Source: SAR86 cluster bacterium
GTDB lineage: Bacteria > Pseudomonadota > Gammaproteobacteria > Magnimaribacterales > D2472
Reading direction: 5' to 3'
DNA length: 64,000 bases
Assembly (NCBI GenBank): GCA_023703615.1
Contig: CP097971.1
Location: 1,059,476 to 1,123,475 of the forward strand
The notes under the pieces are model-generated. The model had not been told where the DNA came from. It saw only the letters and a list, made by a program, of their open reading frames with translations, and did not search any database. Made by a program: the position numbers and the translations under genes. Of this stretch, positions 1 through 16,281 are shown piece by piece (the stretch's first letter is position 1; each line of letters opens with the position of its first letter).

Positions 1-1200
1 AAATTTCTTCAAGCAATCAATTTGGTTGAAAAGTCTGAGGATATTATTGAAGAAAATGATGAGTCTATAGATCCACCTGGATCATCAGATGATCTAGAGA
101 GTAATATTGATGATGTAAATGATGGAGATGAAACTGAAAGCATTGAGTCTAATGAAAGTATGGATATGCCTGATGAAATGCTCTTTGAGGAGGATTCGAC
201 CTCCTCTGCAGAAGCTTCTATTGATGAGGAAATTGAAGCATTATCTTATCCAGAAAATACTTTTAATTCTGAATTACAAAAAAATTACGAAATATATACA
301 AATGATTTTGATGAAGTTATTGATGCAAAAGAGCTGACGACAAATGAAGAATCACTAAGACTCAGAAAACAATTAGATAATCTAATAAAACCCCATCTTA
401 CCACTATAGGAAAACTTGCTAATAGACTTCAAAGATTGCTTCTTGCAAAACAAAATACTAGTTGGAACTATAATCTTGAAGAAGGAATTTTAGATACAGC
501 AAGATTACATAGGATCATTGCAAAACCTGGCTTCCCATTAAGTTTTAAAGAGGAGAAGCAGACAGACTTTAAGGATACTGTAGTTAGTTTGTTGATTGAT
601 AATTCAGGGTCAATGAGAGGAAGATCAATAAGCCTCGCAGCAATCTGTGCAGATATCATTAGTACAACATTAGATAGATGTCAGATTAAAACAGAAATTT
701 TAGGGTTTACAACAAAACATTGGAAAGGTGGACAATCAAAACAATTATGGTTGCAAAGAGGTAGCCGATCCTATCCTGGAAGATTAAACGATATAAGGCA
801 TATTGTTTATAAAAGTGCGGACAATAGCTTAAGGAGAGCTCGTAAGAATTTTGGCACAATGTTAAGAGAAGGTTTGCTAAAAGAAAATATTGATGGTGAA
901 GCGCTTGCATGGTCTCATGAAAGATTAATAAAAAGAGGAGAAGAAAGAAAAATTCTTATTGTTATATCAGATGGAGCACCGGTTGATGATAGTACATTGT
1001 CAGCAAATAAAGATGATTATTTAGATAATCACTTAAAAGAGATAATTTATTTAATTGAAAATAACAGTCCTGTTGAACTTCAAGCCATCGGGATTGGTCA
1101 TGATGTAACAAAATATTATAAAAACGCTTTAACAATTAATAGAGCTGAAGAATTAGGTGAAGTTTTGCTTGATGAGTTAACAAAACTTTTCAAGGATTGA
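1..1200 (+). CDS. cobT: CobT-like protein (cobaltochelatase CobT family), C-terminal part: acidic linker plus von Willebrand factor A domain; 5' end outside window
   Basis: Frame 1 is open from nt 1, so the TTG listed at 22 is internal. D/E/S-rich acidic linker, then [18 protein letters not shown]-type vWA motif [70 protein letters not shown]. This is the CobT/CobT_C pattern. Confidence 0.8.
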
Positions 1201-1251
1201 TAATTAATATAAAATTGGGCTTACGCGTATGCGAATTTAAGGATTAGAATA

Positions 1252-2358
1252 ATGAAAGTTACAAAAAAAAGTGGTCCGCCAAAAGACCTAGTTTATTTTG
1301 ATGAAGATCTTAATCTTACAAAGATGCATGTTGAAGATGTTGTTGAGATTTTTAATACGCCTCTTACAGGATCTTATAATTGGGACTACACAATTGCAGA
1401 TAACCGCATAAAAAAACTTTATGAGTTAGGTAAAGAATTAAATTGGAATGGGTCAATTGATTTAAACTGGGAATATACTCATCCAAGAGATGAAAAAATT
1501 GTTGAGCCTGATGAAGATCTTCCTCACGAAACACTTGAAGCCTATCAAAATCTTTCTGAAGAAGACAAAATATTATTCGACAGACACAGTACTGCTGAAC
1601 TTATGAGTCAATTTTTACATGGGGAACAAGGAGCTTTATTAGTTGCATCTCAACTTGCTTGCTGTGCTCCCACTTACAATGCCAAGTTATATGCAGCATC
1701 ACAGACTTTTGATGAAGCCAGACATGTAGAAGTTTTTAATAGGTATCTTCAGGAAAAAATAGGTATTCATTATCCTATTAATCCAGCATTAAAAATTTTA
1801 TTAGACAAGATTCTTACTGATGAGAGATGGGACCTAAAATTTATTGGCATGCAAATAATTATTGAAGGACTAGCATTAGCTGCTTTTCAAATGCTCAAAG
1901 TAATCACCAAGGATCCTCTGTTAAAGCAACTTCTGCATTATGTTGTAAGAGATGAAGCAAGGCATGTTACGTTTGGTATTAACTATCTCGAAGATTATAT
2001 TAAAACACTTTCTCCAGAAGAGATTAATGAAAGAGCTGAGTTTGCTTATGAGGCATGTGTTATTTCAAGAGAAAGACTTATCAATACGAAATCTGAACAA
2101 AGATTTCTTAAAATGTCAGAGGAAGAAGCTAGAGAATTTCAATTAAATACGAAGACATTTGAGATGTTTAGAAATTTCTTGTTCTCAAGAGTTATACCAA
2201 ATCTTTCAAGAATTGGTCTTTTGACTGATGAGGTAAGACCAAAGTTTGAAGCTTTAGGTCTGCTTGAATATGAGCATGCTCCAAGTGATTTTGAATGTGA
2301 CTGGGCCGAAATGAGAAAACCACTTGAGCAATTTGGTCAAATTCCAGAAGCTATATAA
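1252..2358 (+). CDS. Ferritin-like di-iron carboxylate protein (AurF-like diiron oxygenase family)
   Basis: Two EXXH motifs (FDEARHVEVF, VRDEARHVTFG) plus partner carboxylates (HGEQGALLV, IIIEGLALAAF). N-terminal LYELGKELNWNGSIDLNW resembles the AurF-type family. aagga SD upstream of the ATG. Confidence 0.6.
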   Translation: MKVTKKSGPPKDLVYFDEDLNLTKMHVEDVVEIFNTPLTGSYNWDYTIADNRIKKLYELGKELNWNGSIDLNWEYTHPRDEKIVEPDEDLPHETLEAYQNLSEEDKILFDRHSTAELMSQFLHGEQGALLVASQLACCAPTYNAKLYAASQTFDEARHVEVFNRYLQEKIGIHYPINPALKILLDKILTDERWDLKFIGMQIIIEGLALAAFQMLKVITKDPLLKQLLHYVVRDEARHVTFGINYLEDYIKTLSPEEINERAEFAYEACVISRERLINTKSEQRFLKMSEEEAREFQLNTKTFEMFRNFLFSRVIPNLSRIGLLTDEVRPKFEALGLLEYEHAPSDFECDWAEMRKPLEQFGQIPEAI

Positions 2359-2406
2359 TTCTCATTATTTTTAAATTTTTATATACCAATATATTAGGAT
2401 ACAACT

Positions 2407-3141
2407 ATGTCAAAACACACAGCTATAAATAGATTTGGAAGATCAGGAAATCCTGCATTTTCACAAGGATTTGGAATAAATCAAAGTGTTACTGGAGAAG
2501 TTATGACTCTTGATGGCACTGTTAATAAAACTGGCATTCTTTTAGGATTATGTGTCGGAGGGGCTTATTTTGGCTGGAATGCTCCAGGGCTAGTCTTACC
2601 AGCAGTACTTATTGGATTTGTAATAGCGTTATTTACTATATTTAGACCAAAAAATTCTCCTTATACTGCTCCTGCATATGCAGCTATTGAAGGAGTAGCT
2701 CTTGGCGGAATAACTATGATTTTTGAAGCTCAGTATCCAGGAATAGGTATACAAGCTATTGGATTAACTTTTGGAATACTTGCATCACTTTTATTTTGTT
2801 ATAAAAGTGGAATTATTAAACCAACTGAAAATTTAAGACTTATGATTGTTGCTGGAACAATGGGTATATTTATACTGTACTCAGTTAGCTTTATTATGAG
2901 CTTTTTTGGAAATAGCATTGGATTTATTCATTCAAATGGTCTTTTTGGCATAGGTTTTTCTTTGTTTGTGGTTGCAATTGCTTCACTTAATCTTGTTCTT
3001 GATTTCGATTTTATCGAAGAAGGTGCTGAAAAAGGTATGCCTAAATATCTTGAATGGTATGGTGCATTTAGTCTGATGGTCACTTTGGTATGGTTGTATT
3101 TAGAAATACTCAGACTCCTAGCAAAACTTAGAAGCCGGTAA
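2407..3141 (+). CDS. Bax inhibitor-1-like / YccA-related integral membrane protein
   Basis: Multiple hydrophobic TM segments. N-terminal RSGNPAFS motif is typical of the BaxI_1 (PF12811-like) family. aggat SD-like element upstream. Confidence 0.6.
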   Translation: MSKHTAINRFGRSGNPAFSQGFGINQSVTGEVMTLDGTVNKTGILLGLCVGGAYFGWNAPGLVLPAVLIGFVIALFTIFRPKNSPYTAPAYAAIEGVALGGITMIFEAQYPGIGIQAIGLTFGILASLLFCYKSGIIKPTENLRLMIVAGTMGIFILYSVSFIMSFFGNSIGFIHSNGLFGIGFSLFVVAIASLNLVLDFDFIEEGAEKGMPKYLEWYGAFSLMVTLVWLYLEILRLLAKLRSR

Positions 3142-3236
3142 CCTCGTTGAACTCAATCGCATTTATAGTATTGGCATTATTTTCTTTATTTGTTTTTTTT
3201 AAATTAGGAAAGGTAAGAGCCTCTAATAAGCAACTC

Positions 3237-3272
3237 AATAGAAATAATAGAATTAATAGAATTAATAGATTT
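3237..3272. repeat. 9-bp tandem repeat x4 (aatagaaat aatagaatt aatagaatt aatagattt)
   Basis: Read directly from the sequence. Lies between the BI-1-like gene and the DUF305-LVIVD gene, inside a doubtful 68-aa ORF, where it encodes NRNNRINRINRF. Confidence 0.85.
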
Positions 3273-3321
3273 GGACAATCTAATAAATCTAATATCTATG
3301 AAGGAGAAGCAAAAGAAATTC

Positions 3322-5487
3322 ATGAAGACAAAAAAGAAGATAAAGATAACTAAAAAATTTGCCGTTCTTTTAACATTAATACTTTTAAATAATTTAGTAT
3401 TATCAAAAGAAGCGCCAATACTACAACCAGGATCTCCTGGAGAACCATCAAAAATTCTTGATGAGAAATCTGCAACAGATATTGCAAATACATCATATAT
3501 TCATGCTGATATTAGTTTTCTGCGGGGAATGATAATTCATCATGAACAAGCAATTCTTATGGCAAGCATGATAACTGAAAGAACCAACAATAAAAAAATT
3601 GTGGATCTTGGAAAAAGAATAGATGTTTCTCAAAAAGATGAAATAAATTTCATGGAAAGTTGGCTAAAAGATAGAAATGAATTTGAATCTAAAGCACATA
3701 ATCATATCCATCATGAAATGATTGGTATGGCATCGAAGATGCAACTTGATAAACTTGAAAACTCTTCAAGTGCAGATTTTGACAGATTATTTCTTCAATT
3801 GATGATTGCGCATCATGACGGTGCACTTGAAATGGTCGAAGAACTTAAAAAATATCCTGGGTCAACATACGATCCAATTCTCAATGAATTTGTTTCAGAT
3901 TTAGTAAATGATCAAGGTATTGAGATTGAAAGAATGAATACTATTGCTGTGAATATCTCTGATGATCCTAGATCAGGTTTATCGCCAGGACTATATATTG
4001 CTGGTGAAGCAATATTAAATCTTGAATTAATTGCTTCCCTAAGAAAGCCTGCTGGTTTTTTTGATCCTAAAAATCCAGAAGGAAAAGGATCTGAGGATCT
4101 TACAGAAGATAATTCAGATAAAACTACAGAAGAAATGTCTAGATCTCTAAGAAGCCCGATGTTAAGTTTTGCTAGCACTGATATGGCATTTCAGGATGAT
4201 ATTCTTATTGCTGGTAGTTATCATGGTTTTAACATATACAAGTTGAATACTAATGGTATTCCTGAATTAGTTTCATCTGTTGTTTGTCCCGGTGGGCAAG
4301 GAGACGTTTCCATAGTTGATGATTTACTTATTATGTCGGTAGAGGAAAATAGAAGCAGAATTGATTGCGGTCTTGAAGGTGTAAAAAGTGATGCAAGTCA
4401 AGAAAGATTTAGAGGAATTAGAATTTTTGATATATCTGATCTTTCCAATCCTAGACAAGTTGGAGCAGTTCAAACTTGTAGAGGCTCACATACCCATTCT
4501 GTTGTTTCGTCCTCAACTGTTGATAATAAAATTATTGTCTATAATTCTGGGACGGGCCGAGTAAGAGATATTGAAGAAATGGATACCTGTTTTGGTTGGA
4601 GTAGTGGTGGATCTTCATATTTTACGATCGATATTATTGAAATTCCAATTAGCAATCCAGAAAAATCAAAAATTGTTAAGAGTCCAGCTGTCTTCACAAA
4701 TCTAGAAACTGGCAATCGAGCAGGTTTATGGAGTGGTGGCGATCATGGTGAGGAGACTCAAGATACCAAAGCAACAGATCAATGTCATGATATAACTGTC
4801 TTTCCAACAGCTAAGATTGCAGCAGGAGCATGTTCTGGAAATGGAATCTTATTTGATATATCAGATCCTTATAACCCTACCAGGCTAGATGCTGTAAGAG
4901 ATATTGGATTTGCATATTGGCATTCAGCAACATTTAATAATGATGGAACAAAAGTAATATTTACTGACGAATGGGGTGGCGGTGGAAGAGCAAGATGTAG
5001 AGCATCGGATCCTTTAGACTGGGGTGCTGATGCAATTTACGAAATTATTAATAATAAACTAGTCTTTAAAAGTCACTACAAGATGCCAGCGCCACAATTA
5101 GAAACTGAAAATTGCGTTGCGCATAATGGCTCAATAATTCCAATTCCAAATAGAGATATATTTGTTCAAGCTTGGTACCAGGGTGGTTTATCTATAATGG
5201 ATTTTACTGATTCTGAAAATCCACAAGAAATTGCTTATTTTGATAGAGGTCCAATTTTTGATGATATTTTGATTACAGGCGGTTATTGGTCAACGTATTT
5301 TTATAATGGGTATATATACGGAACTGAGATTAAAAGAGGTCTTGATGTTTTTAAACTTGTGCCAAGCGAGTTCTTAACAGAGACTGAGATTGATGCAGCT
5401 TCAAATGCATATCCTATATCTGGTTCAAAAGTTTTTAATCCTCAGCAGCAAATTCCAATGACCTGGATTGAGAGTGCATCAGAATAA
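3322..5487 (+). CDS. Secreted DUF305 (x2) - LVIVD-repeat beta-propeller fusion protein, putative metal (copper?) binding
   Basis: ORF opens at 3271. The ATG at 3322 gives a classical signal peptide (MKTKKKIKITKKFAVLLTLILLNNLVLS) with aaggag 16 nt upstream. Two DUF305-type units (FLRGMIIHHEQAILMA, FLQLMIAHHDGALEMV) with linker AHNHIHHEMIGM. C-terminal ~480 aa carry LVIVD-like blades (DVSIVDDLLIMSVEE, IRIFDISDLSNPRQV, ILFDISDPYNPTRL, LSIMDFTDSENPQEIAYFD). Confidence 0.7.
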   Translation: MKTKKKIKITKKFAVLLTLILLNNLVLSKEAPILQPGSPGEPSKILDEKSATDIANTSYIHADISFLRGMIIHHEQAILMASMITERTNNKKIVDLGKRIDVSQKDEINFMESWLKDRNEFESKAHNHIHHEMIGMASKMQLDKLENSSSADFDRLFLQLMIAHHDGALEMVEELKKYPGSTYDPILNEFVSDLVNDQGIEIERMNTIAVNISDDPRSGLSPGLYIAGEAILNLELIASLRKPAGFFDPKNPEGKGSEDLTEDNSDKTTEEMSRSLRSPMLSFASTDMAFQDDILIAGSYHGFNIYKLNTNGIPELVSSVVCPGGQGDVSIVDDLLIMSVEENRSRIDCGLEGVKSDASQERFRGIRIFDISDLSNPRQVGAVQTCRGSHTHSVVSSSTVDNKIIVYNSGTGRVRDIEEMDTCFGWSSGGSSYFTIDIIEIPISNPEKSKIVKSPAVFTNLETGNRAGLWSGGDHGEETQDTKATDQCHDITVFPTAKIAAGACSGNGILFDISDPYNPTRLDAVRDIGFAYWHSATFNNDGTKVIFTDEWGGGGRARCRASDPLDWGADAIYEIINNKLVFKSHYKMPAPQLETENCVAHNGSIIPIPNRDIFVQAWYQGGLSIMDFTDSENPQEIAYFDRGPIFDDILITGGYWSTYFYNGYIYGTEIKRGLDVFKLVPSEFLTETEIDAASNAYPISGSKVFNPQQQIPMTWIESASE

Positions 5488-5499
5488 GTTGTAAAAACT

Positions 5500-6333
5500 A
5501 TGAAATTAGGAATTGACTTTGGAATTACAAATACGGATATAGTTCTTTGTGAAGGTAATGCAAAAAAGTTCTATTCAATGCCTTCAGAGCAAATAAATGA
5601 AGAAATATTTTATAAAGTTTCTAAGCTTATCGGAATTGATTTGATAGATATTAGCAAAATTGCAGTTACAGGAGGCAAATCAAGCGATCTTCCAAATTTA
5701 TATAAAAATATTTCAATAGTTAAAGTAAATGAAGTTGAGGCAATTGGTTTGGGTGCTAAAGAAGTATATGGGTTTGAAGATAAATCTTTTGTTGCAGTTA
5801 GTACTGGAACTGGTACTGCGTGTGTTTTTGGTAAAAAAAATAACTTTACTCATCTTGGAGGAATTTCTATTGGTGGAGGAACTCTTCAGGGGATTTCTAA
5901 TTATTTATTGGGGACATCAGAAATAAATGCAATCACTGATCTAGCGAAAAAAGGTTGTCGAAAAAAACTTGACTTTTCCATTGGTGAGGTAGTGAACGAC
6001 ATAGGCAATCTTTATCCAGAAGTTACTGCGTCTAATTTTGCAAAGGCTAAATTAAATAATAATCATAAAGCTGAAGATGTTGCTGCATCAATTACTAATA
6101 TGATTGGAGAAGTAATTGGAACAGTAGCATATTTAAATGCACTATTAATGAATGTTGATAAGGTATTTTTTTTGGGGAGAGTTTGTAAAATTGAACCAGT
6201 AAAAAATGGTATAATTGACAGACTTAATCTTGCAAGTATTAAAGGTGAATTTAATAAAAGCCTTGAGTATGGTTCTGCGCTGGGCGCACTTGCATTTTTA
6301 TCAATAAATCATGAAAATAACGACATTAAATAA
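5500..6333 (+). CDS. Type II pantothenate kinase-like ASKHA ATPase (Fumble/CoaW family homologue)
   Basis: MKLGIDFGITNTDIV phosphate-1 motif, VSTGTGTA, GGISIGGGTLQGISNYLLG, VTASNFAKA, MIGEVIGTVAYL, C-terminal GSALGALAFL. These are colinear with my memory of staphylococcal CoaW / Fumble-domain kinases. 12 nt after the upstream gene. Confidence 0.55.
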   Translation: MKLGIDFGITNTDIVLCEGNAKKFYSMPSEQINEEIFYKVSKLIGIDLIDISKIAVTGGKSSDLPNLYKNISIVKVNEVEAIGLGAKEVYGFEDKSFVAVSTGTGTACVFGKKNNFTHLGGISIGGGTLQGISNYLLGTSEINAITDLAKKGCRKKLDFSIGEVVNDIGNLYPEVTASNFAKAKLNNNHKAEDVAASITNMIGEVIGTVAYLNALLMNVDKVFFLGRVCKIEPVKNGIIDRLNLASIKGEFNKSLEYGSALGALAFLSINHENNDIK

Positions 6334-6339
6334 ACTATT

Positions 6340-7587
6340 ATGATTGTTACAGATAAATCTTTAGTAATAACATTCGCAATACCTGTCTTTTTTATATTGA
6401 TGTTGGTTGAGTATTTCTATGGGAGATCAGTAGGAAAAAATACTTATAGATTAAATGATACATTCACTAGTGTTGCTATTGGGATGATTAGTAGATATCC
6501 AACAATGCTAAATCTTGGGTTTCAAAGTGCTGTATTTATATTTATAAGTAATAACTTAAATTTTGAGCTTCTTTCAACAAAAAGCCCACTAACATGGGTA
6601 ATTGCTTTTTTGCTTTATGATTTATCATATTATTGGATGCATAGAATGCATCATGAAATTAAGTTTCTTTGGGCTACTCATAGTGTCCATCATCATGGTG
6701 AAGATTTTAATCTTTCAACAGCTTTAAGACAGACAAGTACAGGTTGGTTGTGGAAGTGGGTTTTTTATTTACCAATGGTTTTAATAGGTATCCCAGGTGA
6801 AGTATTTATTACAGTTGCAGGAATTAACTTAGTCTATCAGTTTTGGGTTCATACAGAACATATTGGTCACTTAGGTTTTTTAGAGAAAATTTTCATAACA
6901 CCGATGAACCATGGTATTCATCATGCTAAGAATAAAGAGTATATCGATGCAAATTATGGAGGAGTATTCATAATTTGGGACAGAATGTTTGGAACATATA
7001 TCGCACGCGATCCTGACATTGAACCTGTGTATGGAACCGCGACAGCTTTAAAAAGTTGGAATCCAGTATGGGCAAATTTTCAGATCTTTTCTCAAATGCT
7101 AAAAGATAGTATTAAGACAAAAAAACTCTCTGATAAAATAAAAGTTTGGTACTCCAAAACTCATTGGCGCCCTGAAGACTGTTTAGAAGAAAAGGACCCA
7201 AAAGATTTTTATGTAAAATATAATCCAAACATTACTAATGATATAAAACTGTTTTGTTTCATTCAGCTTGGTTTTATAGGACCTGTATCATATTCAGTCT
7301 TATTTTACATAAGTAACTATACTTATATTGAAATAATATATTTTGGTATTGCATTGTTAGCAATAAGTTCTTTAACTTCATATTTACTGACTGGAAATAA
7401 AAATGCCTATCAGTGGTTATTTGGTTTTTCAATTTTTGGCATTTGTGCAATCTATCCTCTTGGTTTAATCGACTTATCTTTGATTTCAACTCAACTTTTA
7501 CTGGCACAATTTATTACAAATATTGTAATAATAAGTTCGATAACTCTGGCAAAGGTTTTTCTTGAAAAAGAAAAGACTTATAACTAA
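6340..7587 (+). CDS. Fatty acid hydroxylase / sterol desaturase superfamily membrane protein with extra C-terminal TM region
   Basis: Histidine boxes HRMHHE, HSVHHH, HTEH, HGIHHA in a polytopic membrane protein. The last ~115 aa are additional hydrophobic helices. 6 nt after the upstream gene. Confidence 0.75.
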   Translation: MIVTDKSLVITFAIPVFFILMLVEYFYGRSVGKNTYRLNDTFTSVAIGMISRYPTMLNLGFQSAVFIFISNNLNFELLSTKSPLTWVIAFLLYDLSYYWMHRMHHEIKFLWATHSVHHHGEDFNLSTALRQTSTGWLWKWVFYLPMVLIGIPGEVFITVAGINLVYQFWVHTEHIGHLGFLEKIFITPMNHGIHHAKNKEYIDANYGGVFIIWDRMFGTYIARDPDIEPVYGTATALKSWNPVWANFQIFSQMLKDSIKTKKLSDKIKVWYSKTHWRPEDCLEEKDPKDFYVKYNPNITNDIKLFCFIQLGFIGPVSYSVLFYISNYTYIEIIYFGIALLAISSLTSYLLTGNKNAYQWLFGFSIFGICAIYPLGLIDLSLISTQLLLAQFITNIVIISSITLAKVFLEKEKTYN

Positions 7588-7594
7588 AGAATCA

Positions 7595-8326
7595 TTATTT
7601 AATTTTTAGTTCTTTGGCTGGCACGCCTGCTACAGTTGAATTTTTTTCAACATCTTTTAAAACCAAACTTCCTGCAGCAACAATTGAGTTTTCACCAATA
7701 GTAATATTTCCTAAAACAGTACTTGCTGCAAAAATAGATGCTCCTTTTTTAACATTTGGATGTCTTTTTCCTGATGCAAATCCCCTACCTCCAAGAGTAA
7801 CACCTTGAAATATTGAAACCTCAGATTCAATTACTGCCGTCTCCCCAATTACAACTCCTGTAGCATGATCAATCATTACGCCGCCTTCAATTAATGCAGC
7901 AGGATGGATGTCTAGGCCAAAAACTTCTGAGGCACGATTTTGAAAAAATAAGGCCATGGTATGCCTTTCACTTTCCCATAAACAATGAGCAGCTCTATAA
8001 GTAGCCAATCCTAAAAATCCTTTATAAAAAAGAAGAGGTGTTGAATAATATTTACATGCAGGATCATGTTCTTTAAAAAATATTAAATCAGCTTCTAATT
8101 TTGACTCGATCTCGTCGCAACTTTTAAAGGCATCTAAAATAAATAATTTTATGTCTTTTGCAGACAGCGCATCGCTATGTAATTTTGATGAAAGAACTGA
8201 AGCAACAGCACTTTGAAGATCATCTTGTGAAATAATTAAAGAATTTAAAAATGGTCCTAATGAAGGCTCAGCATCAATTCGCAAATTAATTTCATCGCAT
8301 ATCTTTTCCCATACTTCTATAGTCAT
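7595..8326 (-). CDS. cysE: Serine O-acetyltransferase
   Basis: SATase N-terminal helical domain followed by a left-handed beta-helix hexapeptide region (HPAALIEGGVMIDHATGVVIGETAVIESEVSIFQGVTLGG...KRHPNV). Confidence 0.85.
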   Translation of the reverse strand: MTIEVWEKICDEINLRIDAEPSLGPFLNSLIISQDDLQSAVASVLSSKLHSDALSAKDIKLFILDAFKSCDEIESKLEADLIFFKEHDPACKYYSTPLLFYKGFLGLATYRAAHCLWESERHTMALFFQNRASEVFGLDIHPAALIEGGVMIDHATGVVIGETAVIESEVSIFQGVTLGGRGFASGKRHPNVKKGASIFAASTVLGNITIGENSIVAAGSLVLKDVEKNSTVAGVPAKELKIK

Positions 8327-8371
8327 ATGGTGCGAATTATAAGTTATCTAGCTAAAAATAAAATATGTAAT

Positions 8372-8857
8372 CTATTCTATATCAACAATTTTTTTCATAT
8401 GCAGACGTGTTTCAGCAAGTAAATCACTCATATATTCTTGAAAAAATATAATCTTTTCATCTTTTAGACGCATTACCATTGCATAATTATTATTATATTC
8501 ACCATTAATAGCTGTTGCTTTTCCCTTAACCATATAAACAACCATATCTCCATCTGCAATTCGTTGATAGATATTTATATCAATGCCATTTGGTAAAACT
8601 TCTGGAATGACTTTTCCCAACCAAACAGATTCATAAGTTTCTTTATTATACTTCTGACAAATTTCACAAATACCCATAAATTCAAATTCAAAATCATCAT
8701 GAAGAAGATCCATTGAAACTGAGGGATTTGTTAAGATATTCTCCCAAAATGTATCAACTATAGCGATATTATTTGCTCTGGTATCTTTATGATGTCCTGC
8801 CCAAATTGATGTTGATGCTATGAGAAATAGCAAACTAAATATTATTCTTTGATTCAT
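8372..8857 (-). CDS. Exported NTF2/SnoaL-like fold protein (hypothetical)
   Basis: Signal peptide MNQRIIFSLLFLIASTSIWA. Size and alternating pattern (VDTFWENIL..., FFQEYMSD) fit the SnoaL/ketosteroid-isomerase-like fold. No catalytic assignment possible. Confidence 0.4.
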   Translation of the reverse strand: MNQRIIFSLLFLIASTSIWAGHHKDTRANNIAIVDTFWENILTNPSVSMDLLHDDFEFEFMGICEICQKYNKETYESVWLGKVIPEVLPNGIDINIYQRIADGDMVVYMVKGKATAINGEYNNNYAMVMRLKDEKIIFFQEYMSDLLAETRLHMKKIVDIE

Positions 8858-8973: not shown

Positions 8974-10071
8974 ATGATGGAAAAATTTAAAATTGATTGT
9001 TTAATTATTGGTGGAGGTGTTGCAGGTCTAGCAATAGGAAAAAGTATAGGTAAACATTTTAAAAATATCTTTTTAGTTGAAAAAAATAATTACATTGGGC
9101 AAGAAACTTCTAGTAGGAATTCTGAAGTTATACATGCTGGAATTTATTACAAAAAAGATTCACTTAAATCAGAGTTTTGTATTGATGGGAAAATTCTACT
9201 TTATGAATATCTTAAAAAAAATCGAATTCCTTATAATAATTGTGGCAAATATATACTTGCAAATACTGATGAAGAAATTATTAAATTACAAAAGATTAAG
9301 GAAAATGCATTTGAATGTGGAGTAGATGATCTAAAATATGACGACTTAAGCATTAAAAAATATGGTTTTTTGAATTATAAAGATGCTTTGTTTTCACCAT
9401 CATCTGGAATATTTGATAGCCATACTTATATGAATTCACTTAGAAATGAATTTGAACAATATGGCGGCTCTATTCTTTTTGGTAATAAGCTTCTGCAAAT
9501 TACAAAAAAAGCTATTGGTTTTGACATTTTAATTTTTGATAAAAATTCTAATCAAGAGTTTGTAATAGAGACAAAGTATTTAATCAATGCAGCCGGAATT
9601 GATTCTGTTAGGATTGCAAATTTAATATTTGGATATGAAAAATATAAAAATAAATTTATTAAAGGTGAATATTATAACTACTCGGGAAAGGAAAAATTAA
9701 AGCATTTAATTTATCCTGTGCCGTCAAAATATAGCGTTGGGCTGCATGCAACAATAGATTTAGGTCAAGGTATAAGATTTGGTCCATCATCATATGAAGT
9801 TCAAGAAATTGAATATAAGCATTCTGACAAACAAAAAAACAAATTTTATGAAGTTGTAAAAGGCTATTGGCCGAATATTTTAAAAGATGAATTAACTCCA
9901 AGCTATACTGGAATTAGGCCGATGTTGGATGATACAGATGATTTTGTAATCGATATAGAAAAAAATGAAAACTCATTATCTATAAATATACTAGGGTATG
10001 CATCTCCAGGACTAACCTCTTCTCTTGCACTTTCAAAAAATATTGAGAAAAGGATTCTTGAAAATATCTAG
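8974..10071 (+). CDS. FAD-dependent oxidoreductase (L-2-hydroxyglutarate oxidase LhgO-like, COG0579 type)
   Basis: Rossmann dinucleotide motif DCLIIGGGVAGLAIG directly after the internal Met pair (ORF opens at TTG 8929). SSRNSEVIHAGIYY. C-terminal GIRP...ASPGLTSSLA, typical of this family. Confidence 0.7.
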   Translation: MMEKFKIDCLIIGGGVAGLAIGKSIGKHFKNIFLVEKNNYIGQETSSRNSEVIHAGIYYKKDSLKSEFCIDGKILLYEYLKKNRIPYNNCGKYILANTDEEIIKLQKIKENAFECGVDDLKYDDLSIKKYGFLNYKDALFSPSSGIFDSHTYMNSLRNEFEQYGGSILFGNKLLQITKKAIGFDILIFDKNSNQEFVIETKYLINAAGIDSVRIANLIFGYEKYKNKFIKGEYYNYSGKEKLKHLIYPVPSKYSVGLHATIDLGQGIRFGPSSYEVQEIEYKHSDKQKNKFYEVVKGYWPNILKDELTPSYTGIRPMLDDTDDFVIDIEKNENSLSINILGYASPGLTSSLALSKNIEKRILENI

Positions 10072-10073
10072 AG

Positions 10074-10853
10074 CTAATTAAGCTTAATGTTATAAAAATT
10101 TTCTACAGTTGAGTTTGCAATTTCCTGTAAAAAAATTTTATCTACATGACGAATTTTACCAAAATAATCATAATTAATTTTTTTTGGAGACTGGTGGGTA
10201 ATACTTGAATAGACAACAAGTGCCGATAAATAAGTTCCTAGCAAATCTGGATGACTGCCATCAAAAGGTTTGTGCAATTGAATATCAGATCGTTGATTGT
10301 AAGCTTCTTCGAATGCAAGGCCTACAGGAATTACTAGCGCATTATTCTCAATACCTGCCTGAATATACATTTCTTGAATATCATTGATCATTTCTGGATA
10401 AGCATAATCATGAGGCTCAACTAAAGCATGAATCATATATAGTGCAGATTCGGCACCACTTTTTTTAATTTCGTTTGTAATTTCTTTAATTTCTTTACTA
10501 AAATTTTTTCTTCTATTTTCGTTAAAAGTTTCTCCACTTCCCCCATGAACTATTACAAGTTCGAAAGGGTCTTGCATTCTTAAACTCTTATAATCTAAAG
10601 AATGCTTTATATTATGATCTGAAAGCGCAGCACCACTTATAGTGATAGATTTATAGCTTCTTCTATCAATATTTTTAGAATAGTATTCCTCTAACATTCT
10701 TCTTACATGATTGTGTAGACTGTCGTTATAGTAAAAATAACTATTACCAATGTATAGAACCCTTTCAGGTTTTTTATTTTCTAAACCTTGAACTCTAATT
10801 TCTTGTGAACTAAGAAAGGTTGAAAACATAACCAACAAAATTAAAAATTTCAT
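10074..10853 (-). CDS. Exported SGNH/GDSL-type hydrolase-like protein
   Basis: Signal peptide MKFLILLVMFSTFLSSQE. Block I LYIGNSY (Ser nucleophile), block V DGSHPD (DxxH). 4 nt downstream of the lyase gene. Confidence 0.5.
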   Translation of the reverse strand: MKFLILLVMFSTFLSSQEIRVQGLENKKPERVLYIGNSYFYYNDSLHNHVRRMLEEYYSKNIDRRSYKSITISGAALSDHNIKHSLDYKSLRMQDPFELVIVHGGSGETFNENRRKNFSKEIKEITNEIKKSGAESALYMIHALVEPHDYAYPEMINDIQEMYIQAGIENNALVIPVGLAFEEAYNQRSDIQLHKPFDGSHPDLLGTYLSALVVYSSITHQSPKKINYDYFGKIRHVDKIFLQEIANSTVENFYNIKLN

Positions 10854-10857
10854 GAGT

Positions 10858-12243
10858 TTAATATTTACTTAGTTTGCGTTTTTCTTCTATTTCTTTGATT
10901 ATTAATTGTGTTTGCTTTTTAGCTAAACCAATATATGTTTCAGGATCCAAGAGATCAGATAAAATATCATCAGAAAAATATTTAGAAATATCTTTATTTT
11001 TTTGTATTGCTTCTTTTAATGTAATACCACTTCGTAAGGCTTCCATTGATACTTCATGCATAATGTTGTCAGCTGTATCTTTTCCTATTTTCTCTGCTAA
11101 ATAAAAAGTAACTCTTTGTGAAAGAATAAGGCCTTTCGTTAAGTCTAAATTTTTTCTCATTACTTCTTTATTTACTTCAAGCTCACTAAATAATCTTTTT
11201 GCTGTTTTGAGCATATCTGATGAAATTATAGAGATATCTTTAATAGACTCATCACTTCTAGGTTGATCTCTTTCAAAACTATTAATCATGTCATCGAGAA
11301 TTATTTCTGCTTGTCTAGGAATTATTCTTGAATAATTTACTAAATTTCCAGGTCCTCTAGGATTTTTCTTATGAGGCATAGTGCTGCTTCCAATAGCTTT
11401 AAATCCAAGATTTTCAAGCGTTTCACCAATTTCAGTCATTTGCAGTAATGTTAATTCATCTCCAATTCTTCCAAAAGATTTTGATATTAGTGCCAAAGTA
11501 AGTCCATATTCTGCAAATACGTCTCTTATACCATGCCAGTCTGCAAGATAAGGTGTTGATAAATTTAATTCTTGCATCATTAGTTTTTCTGTTTCAATTG
11601 CCTTTTCCCCTAGACCAAGATAAGTACCAACAGCACCTTTTAAGATTCCTGATTTATCTATTTTAGATTTCACAGTTATCAATCTTTCAATATTTCTTCT
11701 ATTTTCTGCTAACCAAGTACTAGTTTTTTTACCAAAAGTAATCGGAAGTGCATGTTGGCCAATTGTTCTACCAGCCATGTATGTATCAATATTATCTTTA
11801 GTTAAATTCAATAAATATTCTTCAATATCGTATAAACTTGATATCAAAATTTCTAACGATTCCTTTATTTGTATTACAAGTACTGTATCAAATATATCAA
11901 CTGTGGTTGCACCAAAATGTAAGTATTCTTCAGCTCCATTATCTAACGATCGTTTCCATACGTTAAGTCTTGACACAAGCCTATGTCTAATGAGTTCATT
12001 TTCAATGATAATTTCTTCTATAGGCATATAATTAATGTTGGCTTTTTTAGTAATCTCTTCTGCAGCCCAATTTGGAATTATTCCTTGTGATGCTTGTGCT
12101 CTTGCTAAAGCAGCTTCAATATTCATTACGATCTGATTAGTATTTTCATCACTAAAAATATATGAAACTGTTTTTGTTAGATCAGATTGAATTTTAAAAG
12201 ATATACAAAGTATAAAAATGAAGATGTATTTATAATATTTCAT
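10858..12243 (-). CDS. Fumarate-lyase superfamily enzyme (adenylosuccinate lyase / 3-carboxymuconate cycloisomerase-like) with N-terminal signal-like segment
   Basis: Superfamily signature GSSTMPHKKNP. N-terminal conserved block IFSDENTNQIVMNIEAALARAQASQGIIP. HFGATTVD. Preceded by hydrophobic MKYYKYIFIFILCISFKIQS. Confidence 0.75.
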   Translation of the reverse strand: MKYYKYIFIFILCISFKIQSDLTKTVSYIFSDENTNQIVMNIEAALARAQASQGIIPNWAAEEITKKANINYMPIEEIIIENELIRHRLVSRLNVWKRSLDNGAEEYLHFGATTVDIFDTVLVIQIKESLEILISSLYDIEEYLLNLTKDNIDTYMAGRTIGQHALPITFGKKTSTWLAENRRNIERLITVKSKIDKSGILKGAVGTYLGLGEKAIETEKLMMQELNLSTPYLADWHGIRDVFAEYGLTLALISKSFGRIGDELTLLQMTEIGETLENLGFKAIGSSTMPHKKNPRGPGNLVNYSRIIPRQAEIILDDMINSFERDQPRSDESIKDISIISSDMLKTAKRLFSELEVNKEVMRKNLDLTKGLILSQRVTFYLAEKIGKDTADNIMHEVSMEALRSGITLKEAIQKNKDISKYFSDDILSDLLDPETYIGLAKKQTQLIIKEIEEKRKLSKY

Positions 12244-12246
12244 CTT

Positions 12247-13689
12247 TTATCCTTGAAAAATCATAGGGGCTATTAGATATGAAAAAGCCGTGACAACTAT
12301 TATGCCAAAAATATTTAATATAAAACCAGCCTTTATCATTGTGGCAATTGTAAATTTATTAGATCCGTAAACAATAGCATTTGGAGGAGTTGCTACGGGT
12401 AACATAAAGGCACAACTTGCCGCCAAACATACTGGAATTGTTAATGAAACAGGTAAAACTCCAATTGCAACAGCAATGCCTCCAAAAACTGGTAGAAAAG
12501 TTGTAGTAGTTGTTACGTTTGAAGTTATTTCTGTTAGAAAAATAATCATTGTTGCTACTGCAAAAATTAATATTAAATTAGGAACGCCTTGAAGTGCTAA
12601 AAGACTATTGCCGATCCATAATCCTAAACCAGTTGAGCTAATTTGGGCAGCAAGAGATAACCCTCCACCAAATAATAGCAATAAACCCCATGGAAGTTCT
12701 TTTGATTTCTCCCATTTTAAAATATCCCTATTCGCAGTACTTGATGGGATTATAAAAAATAAAATTGCAGCTATTATTGCAATTCCTGCATCTGTTAAAC
12801 CACTTAAAAAATCTAATTCGATTAGATAGCTTCTAGTCATCCATGCTAAAACTGCAAAGCTAAAGACAAAAAGTACCTTTTTTTCATCTTTTGACATTGG
12901 GCCAAGATCAAAAAGCATTGTTTTTAAATGCTCTTTTGTTTCTTTTGAGGTTATAAAATTAACTGGGAATACGAATTTTGTTAGCACTATCCAAGCAATT
13001 ACTAGCATGATTGCCGATAAAGGCACTCCCATCATCATCCAATCTACCATGCTAATTTCAATATTATATGTTTCTTCCATAAAAGCTCTAAATACAATAT
13101 TTGGTGCTGTACCAATTAAAGTCGACATGCCACCAAGAGTGGCAGCATACGCAATACCTAGCAACAATGCCGTATCAAAATATTTCTTTTTTAAATCTGT
13201 GAGGCCAGGTATTGTTTCGCTTACTACACCACAAACTGCTAAACCAATAGGTAATAACATTAATGTTGTTGATGTATTCATTACGAACATGCTTATTAGT
13301 GCAGCAACAAGCATAAAACCACCTATTAGCGATGGTGCATTTTTCCCAACATATAAAATCATAGAAAGAGCCATTCTTTTGTGTAAACCTGATGCTTCTA
13401 TAGCAAGAGCGATAATAAAGCCGCCTAAAAATAAATATATGTTTGGATTCGAATATGGAACTGCAGCTGTTTTAAAATCAACAATACCAAGTAAAGGAAA
13501 AAGTGCCAACGGAAGCAAAGCAGTTACAGGGACTGGTATTGATTCAGTTGCCCACCAAGTAGCCATTAACACTGCAACTGCTGCGACTTTCCATGCGTTA
13601 GCACTTAACTCAGCAGGAGATGGTAATAGCAAAATTATAAAAAATAATGCCAAACCAATCCAAAATCCCCTTTTTTTGTATGCTGACAT
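12247..13689 (-). CDS. DASS/SLC13 family sodium-coupled anion (di/tricarboxylate or sulfate) symporter
   Basis: ~480 aa polytopic protein. Motifs ATWWATESIPVPVTALLP and the repeated hairpin motif PVATPPNAIVY are typical of the divalent anion:Na+ symporter family. Confidence 0.8.
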   Translation of the reverse strand: MSAYKKRGFWIGLALFFIILLLPSPAELSANAWKVAAVAVLMATWWATESIPVPVTALLPLALFPLLGIVDFKTAAVPYSNPNIYLFLGGFIIALAIEASGLHKRMALSMILYVGKNAPSLIGGFMLVAALISMFVMNTSTTLMLLPIGLAVCGVVSETIPGLTDLKKKYFDTALLLGIAYAATLGGMSTLIGTAPNIVFRAFMEETYNIEISMVDWMMMGVPLSAIMLVIAWIVLTKFVFPVNFITSKETKEHLKTMLFDLGPMSKDEKKVLFVFSFAVLAWMTRSYLIELDFLSGLTDAGIAIIAAILFFIIPSSTANRDILKWEKSKELPWGLLLLFGGGLSLAAQISSTGLGLWIGNSLLALQGVPNLILIFAVATMIIFLTEITSNVTTTTTFLPVFGGIAVAIGVLPVSLTIPVCLAASCAFMLPVATPPNAIVYGSNKFTIATMIKAGFILNIFGIIVVTAFSYLIAPMIFQG

Positions 13690-13706: not shown

Positions 13707-13782
13707 TGGTGGAGCTACGCGGGATCGAACCGCGGACCCCCTGCTTGCAAAGCAGGTGCTCTCCCAGCTGAGCTATAGCCCC
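13707..13782 (-). tRNA. tRNA-Ala (anticodon UGC)
   Basis: Reverse complement reads GGGGCTATAGCTCAGCTGGGAGAGCACCTGCTTTGCAAGCAGGGGGTCCGCGGTTCGATCCCGCGTAGCTCCACCA. Cloverleaf folds, anticodon loop CTTGCAA, G3:U70 alanine identity pair, encoded CCA. Confidence 0.95.
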
Positions 13783-13904: not shown

Positions 13905-16121
13905 TTAGAAATCGTATGAAAAACCAACTTTAATAGTTGCAGGTTTTTGCGATCTAGCTCCTTCTGAAGGTGCTCTTGAAATTAAATCTTCATTATCAGT
14001 AACATTTTCAAGTATTAAATAAACACTAATGGAATCACTTAGTACCTGTCTAAGACTTAAATCAATATAACTATGAGCATCGATTTTATTATAAATTCCG
14101 CAAGCTGCAATCGAGCAAGACCCACCTACATTGACGATTCTTGCATTACCACTTAGTCCATTATCATTAATAAAACCTAACACTATAGAGCTTTGTGAGT
14201 CAGGAATGTATGGCAAATCGTCTCCTGCTGCAACTGTTCCAAAATAATCACTATCTGAACTATTACTAAACGTCGCATCTGTACTTGTGTAATTAACTGA
14301 AATTGGATACATGACGCCATTTTCACCTTGCAACATCCATGATCCACTAAATTCAAGACCAGATACTTCAGCTTCGCCACCACTAAATATTGCAGATTCG
14401 TCTGCATCACATGCAGCACCGCTAACTTGAGTACATTCAGCAGCTAGTCTTGAGTAATCACTTGCAAAGTAGAAAGCTTCAATATTTGTTGTGCTCTCTG
14501 AATACCTTACTCCAAGCTCCATATTATCAGCTTCTTCAGGATCGGAACCAAACATAGGTGTCATTCCTTCATGGAATCCAGCAACTAAACTTGTGGTGTC
14601 ATTTAATTTATATGTAGCTCCAATACTTGATGTAGTATGGTCATTGTAGGCCATTGTATCTCTATTATCAGCTTCACCAGTTCTTACCATTGTTAAATTT
14701 GGTCCTGCAGCATCTGACCATCTTCTGTGACGTTGTTCATAATCTTCTGACCTATATCCAACTGTTACAGCAAGCTTGCCAAAATCCATAGTATCTTCTA
14801 AATAATATGAAGTTGCACTTGACTCTCTTAATCTGTTATTACTATTATTTAAACCGACATAACCATATAAGGCTGATAAAGAACCGTCTGCAGCTTGATC
14901 TGCATATTCATGAGCCTGAACTCTGCTCTCTGAATCTTCCATATCTCTATAACCTACAGTAAGAGAATGTATACCGATTTCTGTTGAAACAGTAAATTGA
15001 TATCCCTCATTCGTGTAGTATCTGTTGTTGTGTTTATATTCTATTTCTACAGCTAATTGTCCATCTAGAATAGCTTGAGCATTTGCACTTCCATTATTTG
15101 CATCACTTATAAGCTCATTAATATCGTCTCTTTCTCCATGTTCTGAGTCGTTATTAAAATCACTTACTTTGAACCAATCTCTGTGATAATCGTTTTGCCA
15201 TGAAGTAAATACAACATCAAAATTATCAAAATCACCAACATAAGTAAGAGAAGTTTGCTCGCCATCATTCATCATTTCATCGTATGCTGTAGCACCATAC
15301 CTCATTCTTGGATTTTTATTAAAACTTGCTTGAGATAAACCTACATATGATTGATCTGAGTTCTCTTCTAAATCAACCATTTTGAATCTTAAAGAATGAT
15401 TACCAGTGTTATATTGAGCTTTAATCATTAAGTCTGATTTATCAAAACCTGTATCACCCCCAACATTAGCAATTGAATCGAAACCATCGCTTGAATGTTC
15501 GTGGACTTCTACAAGAGCCCCAAAATTTGCACTATTGATTCCATAAAAAGCATGGGTTCTTGCCATGCCATTTTCTCCAAGTTCTTGTATGAATTTACCA
15601 GAATTAACTTCAGGAATTGGAGTACTTATCAAATTTATAGCACCACCAATAGTCTGAGGTCCTTGAGATACAGCCGCTGGACCTTTTAAAAACTCAACTG
15701 AATGTATTCTGCCAGTTGTTGGAAAATAATAAGCAGATGAAGATGTATACGGTGATGGAGCAACTAAAACGCCGTCTTCCATGATCGTGACTTTTCCTGA
15801 TCTTTCAATTGCGGTACCTCTTATAGAGATATTTGGTCTTAAACCATACCCTTCTTCTGTTCTCATATAAACACCTGGAACAGCTGTAAGAATTTTTTGA
15901 ATATCGGTATCCATTGCAATTTCTAGGTCTTCATTTGAAATAATTGCACCAGATCCTGCTAGGTTTTTTAAATCCTCTTTTGAACCAATAATTGATACAG
16001 ATTCTATTTCTTCAACTTCATCATCAGCATTAATTGTTGTTACAACTGATAAAAGAAGAAATAAAAACAACATAAACAATGTTGATTTGTTCTCAATCAT
16101 TTCTCTTAATATATTTTTCAT
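13905..16121 (-). CDS. TonB-dependent outer-membrane receptor, probably iron-regulated
   Basis: Signal peptide, plug domain (DTDIQKILTAVPGVYM...GLRPNISIRGT, VTIMEDGVLVAP), long beta-barrel, terminal aromatic (..FSYDF). Fur box upstream. Alternative start at the Met 7 codons in. Confidence 0.9.
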   Translation of the reverse strand: MKNILREMIENKSTLFMLFLFLLLSVVTTINADDEVEEIESVSIIGSKEDLKNLAGSGAIISNEDLEIAMDTDIQKILTAVPGVYMRTEEGYGLRPNISIRGTAIERSGKVTIMEDGVLVAPSPYTSSSAYYFPTTGRIHSVEFLKGPAAVSQGPQTIGGAINLISTPIPEVNSGKFIQELGENGMARTHAFYGINSANFGALVEVHEHSSDGFDSIANVGGDTGFDKSDLMIKAQYNTGNHSLRFKMVDLEENSDQSYVGLSQASFNKNPRMRYGATAYDEMMNDGEQTSLTYVGDFDNFDVVFTSWQNDYHRDWFKVSDFNNDSEHGERDDINELISDANNGSANAQAILDGQLAVEIEYKHNNRYYTNEGYQFTVSTEIGIHSLTVGYRDMEDSESRVQAHEYADQAADGSLSALYGYVGLNNSNNRLRESSATSYYLEDTMDFGKLAVTVGYRSEDYEQRHRRWSDAAGPNLTMVRTGEADNRDTMAYNDHTTSSIGATYKLNDTTSLVAGFHEGMTPMFGSDPEEADNMELGVRYSESTTNIEAFYFASDYSRLAAECTQVSGAACDADESAIFSGGEAEVSGLEFSGSWMLQGENGVMYPISVNYTSTDATFSNSSDSDYFGTVAAGDDLPYIPDSQSSIVLGFINDNGLSGNARIVNVGGSCSIAACGIYNKIDAHSYIDLSLRQVLSDSISVYLILENVTDNEDLISRAPSEGARSQKPATIKVGFSYDF

Positions 16122-16245: not shown

Positions 16246-16270
16246 AATGAGAATGATAATGATTCTCATT
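16246..16270. promoter_or_regulatory. Fur box (ferric uptake regulator operator)
   Basis: aatgaGAATGATAATGATTCtcatt. Core 16249-16267 matches 16 of 19 positions of GATAATGATAATCATTATC. Perfect 9-bp inverted arms aatgagaat/attctcatt. ~125 nt upstream of the receptor ATG. Confidence 0.65.
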
Positions 16271-16281
16271 TTGATTTACAA
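16253..16281 (-). promoter_or_regulatory. Predicted sigma-70 promoter of the TonB-dependent receptor, overlapping the Fur box
   Basis: Minus strand TTGTAA - 17 nt - TATCAT. The -10 lies inside the Fur box, which is the classical repression geometry. Confidence 0.45.

Follow-up and report, generated by a model that had tools for sequence, protein, structure and literature searches.

A predicted exported clade of PurB/PcaB-type lyases, encoded beside a dicarboxylate symporter in a SAR86 cluster bacterium and in other bacteria

Can an enzyme of the aspartase/fumarase superfamily, whose members are to our knowledge described only as cytoplasmic or organellar, be put to work in the periplasm? The question is raised by a three-gene unit of a SAR86 cluster bacterium, found in a 64-kb stretch of contig CP097971.1 (positions 1,059,476 to 1,123,475); this whole stretch, of about 31% GC, is called the window below, and all coordinates are positions within it. 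An earlier annotation made from the letters alone (the sequence-only reading) had noticed there a lyase with a signal-peptide-like N-terminus, encoded between an anion symporter and an exported hydrolase, and had proposed that an esterified di/tricarboxylate is processed in the periplasm before uptake. The exported-lyase finding is real and broader than had been supposed, but the three-gene pathway and the ester idea are unsupported as stated. Judged by its sequence, the lyase is a member of an uncharacterised, monophyletic and predictedly exported clade of PurB/PcaB-type enzymes of the superfamily. In the literature searches made, no exported or periplasmic member of the superfamily was found described, and no characterisation of an iminodisuccinate C-N lyase turned up. 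Achromobacter 'argininosuccinate lyases' are listed as Tat substrates, and these we take to be misnamed binding proteins. The unit and the elements on which its reading depends are as follows.

12247..13689, minus strand: DASS/SLC13-type Na+-coupled di/tricarboxylate symporter, 480 aa, first gene of the unit
10858..12243, minus strand: PurB/PcaB-like lyase open reading frame (ORF), 461 aa
12184..12243, minus strand: predicted Sec-type signal peptide, lyase residues 1-20 (MKYYKYIFIFILCISFKIQS), predicted cleavage between S20 and D21
10858..12183, minus strand: mature PurB/PcaB-like fumarate-lyase-superfamily domain, residues 21-461 plus the stop codon
12250..12254, minus strand: AAGGA Shine-Dalgarno sequence for the lyase, within the 3' end of the DASS gene (CAAGGATAAAAG-ATG, 6 nt 5' of the ATG)
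10074..10853, minus strand: SGNH/DUF4886-type serine hydrolase, 259 aa, exported according to a predicted signal peptide of about 16-17 residues

The ORF list and the letters at the junctions agree with the earlier description of three minus-strand genes with spacers of 3 and 4 nt: the DASS gene is joined to the lyase gene by TAA-AAG-ATG, and the lyase gene to the SGNH gene by TAA-ACTC-ATG. The same gene order is found in the single-amplified-genome assembly GCA_902612975.1. The position of the Shine-Dalgarno sequence inside the DASS gene suggests that translation of the lyase is coupled to that of the symporter. The first gene was rightly read as a DASS/SLC13 anion symporter, since its product exceeds the cut-off of TIGR00785 (288.6 bits against 198.6); it also matches Pfam Na_sulph_symp with 251 bits, and the nearest solved structures are those of NaDC1 (259 bits), NaCT (257 bits), and VcINDY (189 bits).

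Export of the lyase is the first point to be settled, and signal peptides were judged here by inspection and a hydrophobicity heuristic only. With the predicted cleavage point marked by a slash, the N-terminus reads MKYYKYIFIFILCISFKIQS/DLTKTVSYIFSDE. It has K2 and K5 in the n-region, the hydrophobic core YIFIFILCISF, and the site I-Q-S/D, which places I and S at -3 and -1. Orthologues that are 74-89% identical overall begin with MIRTLLISFIFISTNVISS/DD, MMKNLLSVLLIFSMSVVT/DE, or MIRALLVTSILISSNLISS/DD, again with a basic n-region, a hydrophobic core of 10-13 residues, V or I at -3, and S or T at -1. In this segment only 3-5 of 18-19 aligned residues are identical to the window protein, against 77-90% identity in the rest of the protein. 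The n/h/c architecture noticed earlier is thus seen both in the window and in its orthologues, and it is kept despite the divergence of the sequence; loss of the hydrophobic N-terminus from orthologues, which the sequence-only reading had named as a reason to drop the claim, is not what they display.

A trivial explanation would be an annotation artefact, with a true start that is non-canonical or further downstream, a hydrophobic stretch that reflects read-through of AT-rich sequence, and a cytoplasmic lyase. The public JGI/Tara calls of this gene (P0005-P0008) start at M40 and give proteins of 420-422 aa, and genomes of about 31% GC favour F, I, L, K, and Y codons. However, in line with the earlier statement that no alternative start codon precedes the core, no ATG, GTG, or TTG lies in frame between the first ATG and M40, which is itself inside the conserved core; a start at M40 deletes residues 21-39, and these align to the core in every homologue as well as in PDB 3c8t and 1re5. 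The Shine-Dalgarno sequence ahead of the long start supports the upstream ATG as the true one. Signal peptides occur throughout the clade, including in genomes of 51-61% GC, and are therefore not an artefact of AT-rich sequence, and the depletion of cysteine described below is independent of the N-terminus altogether. An artefact is accordingly extremely unlikely. The M40 starts of the public calls hide both the signal peptide and a part of the core, and annotation of the family is inconsistent.

The signal extends far beyond SAR86. In an exhaustive search of 50%-identity representatives, all those at least 39% identical to the lyase and with the N-terminus present carry a signal peptide, often with an AxA site (for example ...LASSGVASA/DQ and ...LCSAAEA/AP), and those at 38% identity or below lack one, their N-terminus lying 15-20 residues ahead of the IFSDE-type core. 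A further 114 clade members came from a profile search; they belong to Microbulbifer, Pontixanthobacter, Erythrobacter, Qipengyuania, Hyphomicrobium, Robiginitomaculum, and other taxa. Of these 114, 100 pass the hydrophobicity test, and most of the others have Ala-rich cores. In a neighbour-joining tree of 165 sequences, the signal-peptide sequences, the window lyase among them, group together in one clade. Of its 42 leaves, 37 satisfy strict criteria, 4 show weaker, Ala-rich signals, and one is a fragment. By the same criteria, none of the 123 sequences outside this clade has a signal peptide. The mature domains differ as well: they contain a mean of 0.62 cysteines in the clade against 4.7 in the cytoplasmic relatives (Mann-Whitney p=1e-20), and they are Cys-free in 20 of 42 clade members, including the mature part of the window lyase, against 1 of 123 cytoplasmic relatives. 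Such depletion is expected of proteins that fold in an oxidising compartment. The AF2 model gives nearly all of residues 1-22 a pLDDT under 50, and its confidently folded part starts at about residue 24. Taken together, these features make it highly probable that the lyase is exported to the periplasm.

Neither the window lyase nor any SAR86 orthologue contains the RR of a twin-arginine motif, which makes Sec the likely route; an RR does occur in the n-region of a few distant clade members (P0464, P0482, P0483), which may be exported by Tat. The earlier claim had left the choice between a periplasmic and a membrane-anchored enzyme. The first part has held, through the clade-wide signal and the Cys depletion, and the second is weakened by a hydrophobic core of only about 10-13 residues. 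An uncleaved signal anchor, or a lipoprotein signal, would tether the lyase to the inner or outer membrane, facing the periplasm. In favour of tethering, several lyases of Erythrobacteraceae (P0391, P0394, P0402, P0421, and others) have a Cys right after the A-x-A site (...QALAC/S, ...ASAC/S), forming possible lipoboxes, and may be lipoproteins, and the window lyase has a Cys in its hydrophobic core. The latter Cys is nevertheless outside any lipobox context and is replaced by Phe or Ser in alleles that are 98-99% identical, and short cores followed by small residues at -3 and -1 are typical of cleaved Sec signals. For the window protein, a tethered form is thus quite improbable.

What reaction would such an enzyme catalyze? 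The second gene had been described as a PurB/PcaB-like lyase carrying GSSTMPHKKNP, and this description is borne out by matches to Pfam Lyase_1 (PF00206, 125.2 bits, cut-off 27) and ADSL_C (48 bits). Three motifs are recognized, HFGATTVD, GRTIGQHALP, and GSSTMPHKKNP, and S286, S287, M289, P290, K292, N294, and P295 are invariant across the exported clade. The lyase nevertheless falls under every NCBIfam equivalog cut-off. It scores 270.5 bits against the purB model TIGR00928 (cut-off 326.2), 282.8 and 192.2 against the PcaB models NF006554 (cut-off 595) and TIGR02426 (cut-off 355.75), 326 against an ADSL subfamily model (cut-off 626), and 314 against XcbD (cut-off 600). Identity with PurB was rejected on the TIGR00928 score and on the replacement of the catalytic His of GRTH by Ile161, and identity with PcaB on the NCBIfam scores and on the absence of pca genes from every locus examined. 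The labels 'adenylosuccinate lyase' and 'PcaB' that proteins of the exported clade bear in public databases are probably wrong.

A number of likenesses and differences with the characterized enzymes can be listed. With PurB (TIGR00928; structures 1f1o and 1c3c), the lyase shares the Lyase_1 and ADSL_C domains, the C1 and C3 motifs, and an expected fumarate-releasing beta-elimination, but it has Ile in place of the GRTH His, is predicted to be exported, is Cys-free in its mature part, and is encoded next to DASS and hydrolase genes rather than purine genes. With PcaB/CMLE (1re5, 1q5n), it shares the fold and the subfamily branch (TM-score 0.82-0.85), the GSSxMPxKxNP loop, a residue other than His at the ADSL acid position, and independence from cofactors; identity is however only about 29%, CMLE has Trp where the window lyase has Ile, CMLE is cytoplasmic whereas the window lyase has a predicted signal peptide, and the pca/protocatechuate gene context is missing. 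By sequence, the closest solved proteins are 3c8t (211 bits) and the CMLEs 1re5 (193 bits) and 1q5n (180 bits), followed by Tad1 (about 170 bits), ADSLs (about 140-160 bits), and CreD (139 bits). The AF2 model (pLDDT 83.8) has the monomer fold of Tad1, CMLE, and ADSL, and compares with Tad1, 3c8t, CMLE, CreD, and ADSL at TM-scores of 0.8-0.9 and 25-31% identity. The 'fumarate lyase' 3c8t from Mesorhizobium sp. BNC1 is the best match in sequence, and 3c8t and Tad1 (9h3i) are the best in structure (0.83-0.90). Both differ from the window lyase in that identity is about 30%, the alignments begin near their chain N-termini, and no signal peptide is evident. The chemistry of this branch of the superfamily is diverse, as the two illustrate; 3c8t has retained the His (GRTHLQHALP), and Tad1 is a trans-aconitate decarboxylase from a fungus.

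The position of the ADSL catalytic His (GRT-H) is occupied by Ile161 in the window lyase, by Leu or Ile across the clade, by Trp in PcaB/CMLE, and by His in 3c8t, and the succinyl-binding motifs and the catalytic serine loop are intact (HFGATTVD, T160, GSSTMPHKKNP). Intact motifs together with the missing acid His argue for a beta-elimination from a 2-substituted succinate whose leaving group does not need to be protonated, for instance an already protonated amine or a carboxylate; the substrate is not thereby identified. A small cytoplasmic sister group, whose members have no signal peptides (P0249, P0251, P0260, P0267), shares Leu at this position. Its gene context could reveal the ancestral substrate, although the contig of P0249 (1.8 kb) is uninformative.

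Hints about the substrate come from the company that the lyase keeps outside SAR86. In 27 loci of the clade from other bacteria, the following neighbours recur.

DASS symporter, orthologous to that of the window: 23 of 27 loci
TonB-dependent receptor of about 1000 aa, often with an ECF sigma/FecR pair ahead of it: 19 of 27 loci
M14 peptidase of the cytosolic-carboxypeptidase (CCP-like) type: 10 of 27 loci
PahZ1 homologue of about 300-310 aa (PDB 6ve6, E=3e-69, 236 bits): 6 of 27 loci (L009, L010, L088, L095, L096, L150)
M28 peptidase: 5 of 27 loci
PahZ2 homologue, an M20 protein (PDB 7ljh, E=1.9e-88): 4 of 27 loci (L145-L148)
Amidohydrolase of the D-aminoacylase/N-acyl-D-Glu deacylase type: 3 of 27 loci

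The adjacency of lyase and DASS genes recurs in Erythrobacteraceae, Microbulbifer, Robiginitomaculum, a metagenome-assembled genome of Acidobacteria, and many marine contigs, and the DASS proteins that adjoin the lyase in other phyla are 39-52% identical to that of the window. By comparison, about 100 loci of cytoplasmic lyase homologues yielded only two weak DASS matches. The two DASS-less loci whose neighbours were inspected have an SDF/DctA-type carrier instead, accompanied in one of them by a dCache kinase and a sigma-54 regulator that resemble DctBD. The tie between the lyase and an anion importer, as first proposed, is thus found well outside SAR86, and a functional coupling of lyase and symporter is likely.

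The PahZ1, PahZ2, M14, M28, and amidohydrolase partners all have predicted signal peptides or lipoboxes. PahZ1 and PahZ2 are reported to be periplasmic and to break down thermal poly(aspartic acid), first into oligomers and finally into aspartate (PMC13017698). The 2026 paper on PahZ1 mentions neither an operon nor a lyase, transporter, or TonB receptor, and does not discuss a natural substrate (PMC13017698). The two-step periplasmic hydrolysis of an anionic aspartyl polymer in Sphingomonas sp. KT-1 (6ve6, 7ljh) is among the known systems closest to that of the lyase, in that clear homologues of its enzymes adjoin the lyase, DASS, and TonB receptor genes in relatives; the window differs from it in having neither enzyme. 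The M28 neighbour had also been considered as PahZ2, which is unsupported, the PahZ2 homologue being the M20 protein of L145. One PahZ1 locus, L088, has the order M14-lyase-sigma-FecR-TBDR-M28-DASS-PahZ1 (TBDR, TonB-dependent receptor). Beside it, at 1120-7322 on the minus strand, lie genes for a D-Glu cyclase, 5-oxoprolinase-type subunits, a D-amino-acid aminotransferase, and an alanine racemase; this block fits substrates that contain D-residues. FAD oxidoreductases of the DAO family neighbour the lyase both in the window and in Pontixanthobacter, but the two are not detectably similar, and the apparent sharing is a coincidence. As the lyase-DASS pair of the relatives sits beside PahZ1/PahZ2, peptidases, and D-aminoacylase-like genes, catabolism of polyaspartate-like material is its most likely setting. 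A substrate of the polyaspartate type is reasonably probable in these relatives, and for SAR86 itself it is somewhat doubtful.

These elements can be assembled into a scheme, held with moderate confidence as a whole, in which a periplasmic lyase performs a beta-elimination on an aspartyl-type unit and releases fumarate that is imported by the DASS protein; its export route, transport direction, substrate, and product are those that we infer for the lyase-DASS unit. The Sec machinery would export the lyase, the signal peptide would be cut near S20 and D21, and the cofactor-free enzyme would assemble in the periplasm. In relatives with TonB-dependent loci, an anionic aspartyl polymer or oligomer would cross the outer membrane and be trimmed hydrolytically in the periplasm. 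The substrate of the lyase would be a 2-substituted succinate, most probably of the aspartyl type (aspartate, whether free or terminal, or a remnant of the N-(1,2-dicarboxyethyl) type). Its beta-elimination would yield a C4-dicarboxylate, fumarate, to be imported with Na+ by the DASS protein that is encoded directly upstream and would be translationally coupled. The pathway would most likely be one of periplasmic catabolism of polyaspartate-like or isoaspartyl-rich anionic peptides, of which SAR86, with its reduced genome, may run a stripped-down version consisting of the lyase and one or two helpers, here the DASS protein and the SGNH hydrolase. The same logic is known from the periplasmic asparaginase AnsB and the Dcu/DctA carriers, where a Sec-exported, cofactor-free tetramer converts a nitrogenous C4 compound and a carrier imports the product; AnsB is however an amidohydrolase and not a lyase, and the step catalyzed by the aspartase/fumarase superfamily is cytoplasmic in such systems.

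Several observations weigh against this scheme. Aspartase is a more distant relative of the exported clade than CMLE, Tad1, and 3c8t are, and with the acid-catalyst His absent, neither free aspartate nor an N-acyl-aspartyl unit is an obvious substrate. Some members of the DASS family are exchangers, so that the direction of import is an assumption. Most SAR86 relatives have the lyase without DASS, between PhzF and alternative oxidase genes, and the 64-kb window contains no PahZ1, PahZ2, M14, or D-aminoacylase gene. Conversion of aspartyl units to fumarate as the actual chemistry is put forward only tentatively. More doubtful still is the joint reading of a widespread periplasmic pathway in which the lyase would be the last step of a TonB-dependent dismantling of polyaspartate-like polymers, possibly isoaspartyl- or D-Asp-rich 'aged' peptides or acidic biomineral matrix in nature, so that aspartyl units would yield ammonium or an amine together with fumarate, which would be taken up with Na+; SAR86 would retain only the lyase-transporter core.

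If this joint reading were true, it would give a natural role to the 'synthetic-polymer' hydrolases PahZ1 and PahZ2, and the clade would be the first exported one of its superfamily. The presence of the predicted exported clade in abundant marine bacteria, as well as in cultured Microbulbifer and Erythrobacteraceae, indicates that cofactor-free beta-elimination has been recruited to the periplasm. Together with PahZ1/PahZ2, acidic peptidases, a TonB receptor, and a dicarboxylate carrier, the lyase gene makes up a utilisation locus that can be tested. The association also hints at what the poly(aspartic acid) hydrolases do outside the laboratory, a point relevant to how aspartate-rich and isomerised peptides are turned over in the dissolved organic matter of the sea.

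The main rival keeps the fumarate and its import by DASS but makes the substrate an ester (an O-acyl-malate, a polyester of the poly(beta-malate) type, or some other esterified di/tricarboxylate). It would be trimmed by a serine esterase, the SGNH protein in SAR86 and the PHB-depolymerase-like PahZ1 elsewhere, and the lyase would cleave a C-O bond by beta-elimination, as CMLE run in reverse. CMLE, which makes and breaks a carboxylate C-O bond, is indeed among the nearest characterized relatives, and the change of the acid His to Ile or Leu, where CMLE has Trp, is to be expected if the leaving group does not have to be protonated. A serine hydrolase of one family or another also stands near the lyase in several places: the SGNH protein in the window, PahZ1 with its weak similarity to PHA depolymerases, and a beta-lactamase-family protein in the SAR86-like locus L107. 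Yet PahZ1 and PahZ2 have been found by experiment to be amide hydrolases (PMC13017698), the loci also encode peptidases of families M14, M28, and M20 as well as enzymes resembling D-aminoacylase, no gene specific to polyesters turned up, and the SGNH gene is not co-conserved with the lyase and exists without it. With amide hydrolases as the conserved partners elsewhere, the esterified di/tricarboxylate first proposed fits the loci poorly, and a malyl- or polymalate-type ester with C-O cleavage is an improbable alternative to the aspartyl-type substrate.

The SGNH protein itself is much as had been described, an exported hydrolase with GNS and DGSH blocks. Its Pfam DUF4886 score of 24.8 is just under the cut-off of 26.7, and a sequence search of the PDB found no match, fold comparison alone giving any: the top Foldseek matches of its AF2 model are the DUF4886 protein 4i8i and SGNH esterases. 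G36-N37-S38, G74, G105-S-G-E108, and D198-x-x-H201 are invariant in homologues, and so is the whole predicted triad of S38, D198, and H201. Close homologues (57-63% identity) occur in SAR86 genomes and marine contigs, often apart from the lyase.

How tightly the three genes belong together was judged from 46 SAR86-like loci with a lyase of at least 60% identity. The DASS gene adjoins the lyase gene only in the window's own species (L005, L006), and the more frequent neighbours are a divergent PhzF-family gene (33 loci) and the alternative oxidase gene (15). The SGNH gene is a neighbour in 10, usually one gene away and convergent, and an M28 peptidase gene in 6. The trio, whose conservation had been left as a check on the original proposal, is therefore not co-conserved. 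In other SAR86 genomes the same syntenic region contains the SGNH gene but no lyase gene, and the SGNH protein was rejected as an obligatory partner; the link between lyase and SGNH genes is loose and specific to SAR86. No PahZ1 or PahZ2 homologue was found in the SAR86 loci. In L107, at 4241-8833, a serine hydrolase of the beta-lactamase family (399 aa), a lipoprotein-like protein of 184 aa, and the lyase share a closely packed operon. Convergent with this operon is the gene of an exported M28 peptidase, which has 52-58% identity with its counterpart in the L088 PahZ1 locus. In the SAR86 relatives L001, L004 (both at about 7975-8000), and L007 (about 9987-10012), CATATAAT stands only about 6-7 nt 5' of the lyase ATG and no Shine-Dalgarno sequence is present, which suggests a lyase mRNA that is leaderless or has a very short leader.

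Finally, a TonB receptor gene also lies upstream of the unit in the window, and its relation to the lyase has to be considered. The elements involved are the following.

13707..13782, minus strand: tRNA-Ala(UGC), found by ARAGORN, 17 nt upstream of the DASS start codon
13841..13864, minus strand: strong hairpin resembling an intrinsic terminator (GGGATGC-GAAA-GCATCCC followed by T6), read from the sequence
13905..16121, minus strand: TonB-dependent receptor, 738 aa, upstream of the unit
16249-16267 (also listed as 16249-16273): Fur-box-like site GAGAATGATAATGATTCTC, 5' of the 738-aa receptor gene, 16 of 19 bases matching the consensus

The distance from the tRNA gene to the DASS ATG is too short for a promoter of its own, so that the DASS-lyase-SGNH mRNA is probably co-transcribed with this stand-alone tRNA-Ala(UGC) as a tRNA-mRNA transcript. 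The hairpin would close the upstream receptor gene and mark the 5' boundary of the unit; it is not listed by the consensus terminator scan, probably because an A-tract pairs with its T-run.

The proximity of the receptor raises the possibility of an iron module, in which a ferric polycarboxylate siderophore enters through the receptor and is destroyed in the periplasm by the lyase and the esterase, and the DASS protein, acting like CitMHS, imports the metal-carboxylate or the ligand. The Fur-box-like site speaks for such a module (the window has two such sites with four matches in all, where chance would give 0.1), as do the best NCBIfam matches of the receptor, FecA and other iron or siderophore receptors, all far under cut-off, and the ECF-sigma/FecR pairs ahead of the receptors in several related loci. 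The hairpin and the tRNA gene, however, separate the Fur-regulated receptor from the unit, the 738-aa protein is not homologous to the receptors of about 1000 aa in other lyase loci, none of those loci has a Fur box, and the partner enzymes are hydrolases of peptides or polyaspartate. Iron acquisition, a very unlikely account, was rejected as the explanation of the unit, given a receptor neither homologous nor co-transcribed and no Fur box elsewhere, and the receptor is treated as a separate iron-regulated gene.

The second Fur-box-like match, at 31941-31959 with 3 mismatches, lies inside the ORF 30882-32423 and was set aside as probably due to chance. On contig L006, the same Fur box as that of the 738-aa receptor gene stands between the receptor gene and a divergent P19-type iron-transport gene (PF10634), which has no counterpart in the window. 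At 8372-8857 on the minus strand, the window encodes a further protein of 161 aa that has a signal-peptide-like N-terminus (MNQRIIFSLLFLIASTSIWAG...) and matches no Pfam or NCBIfam model.

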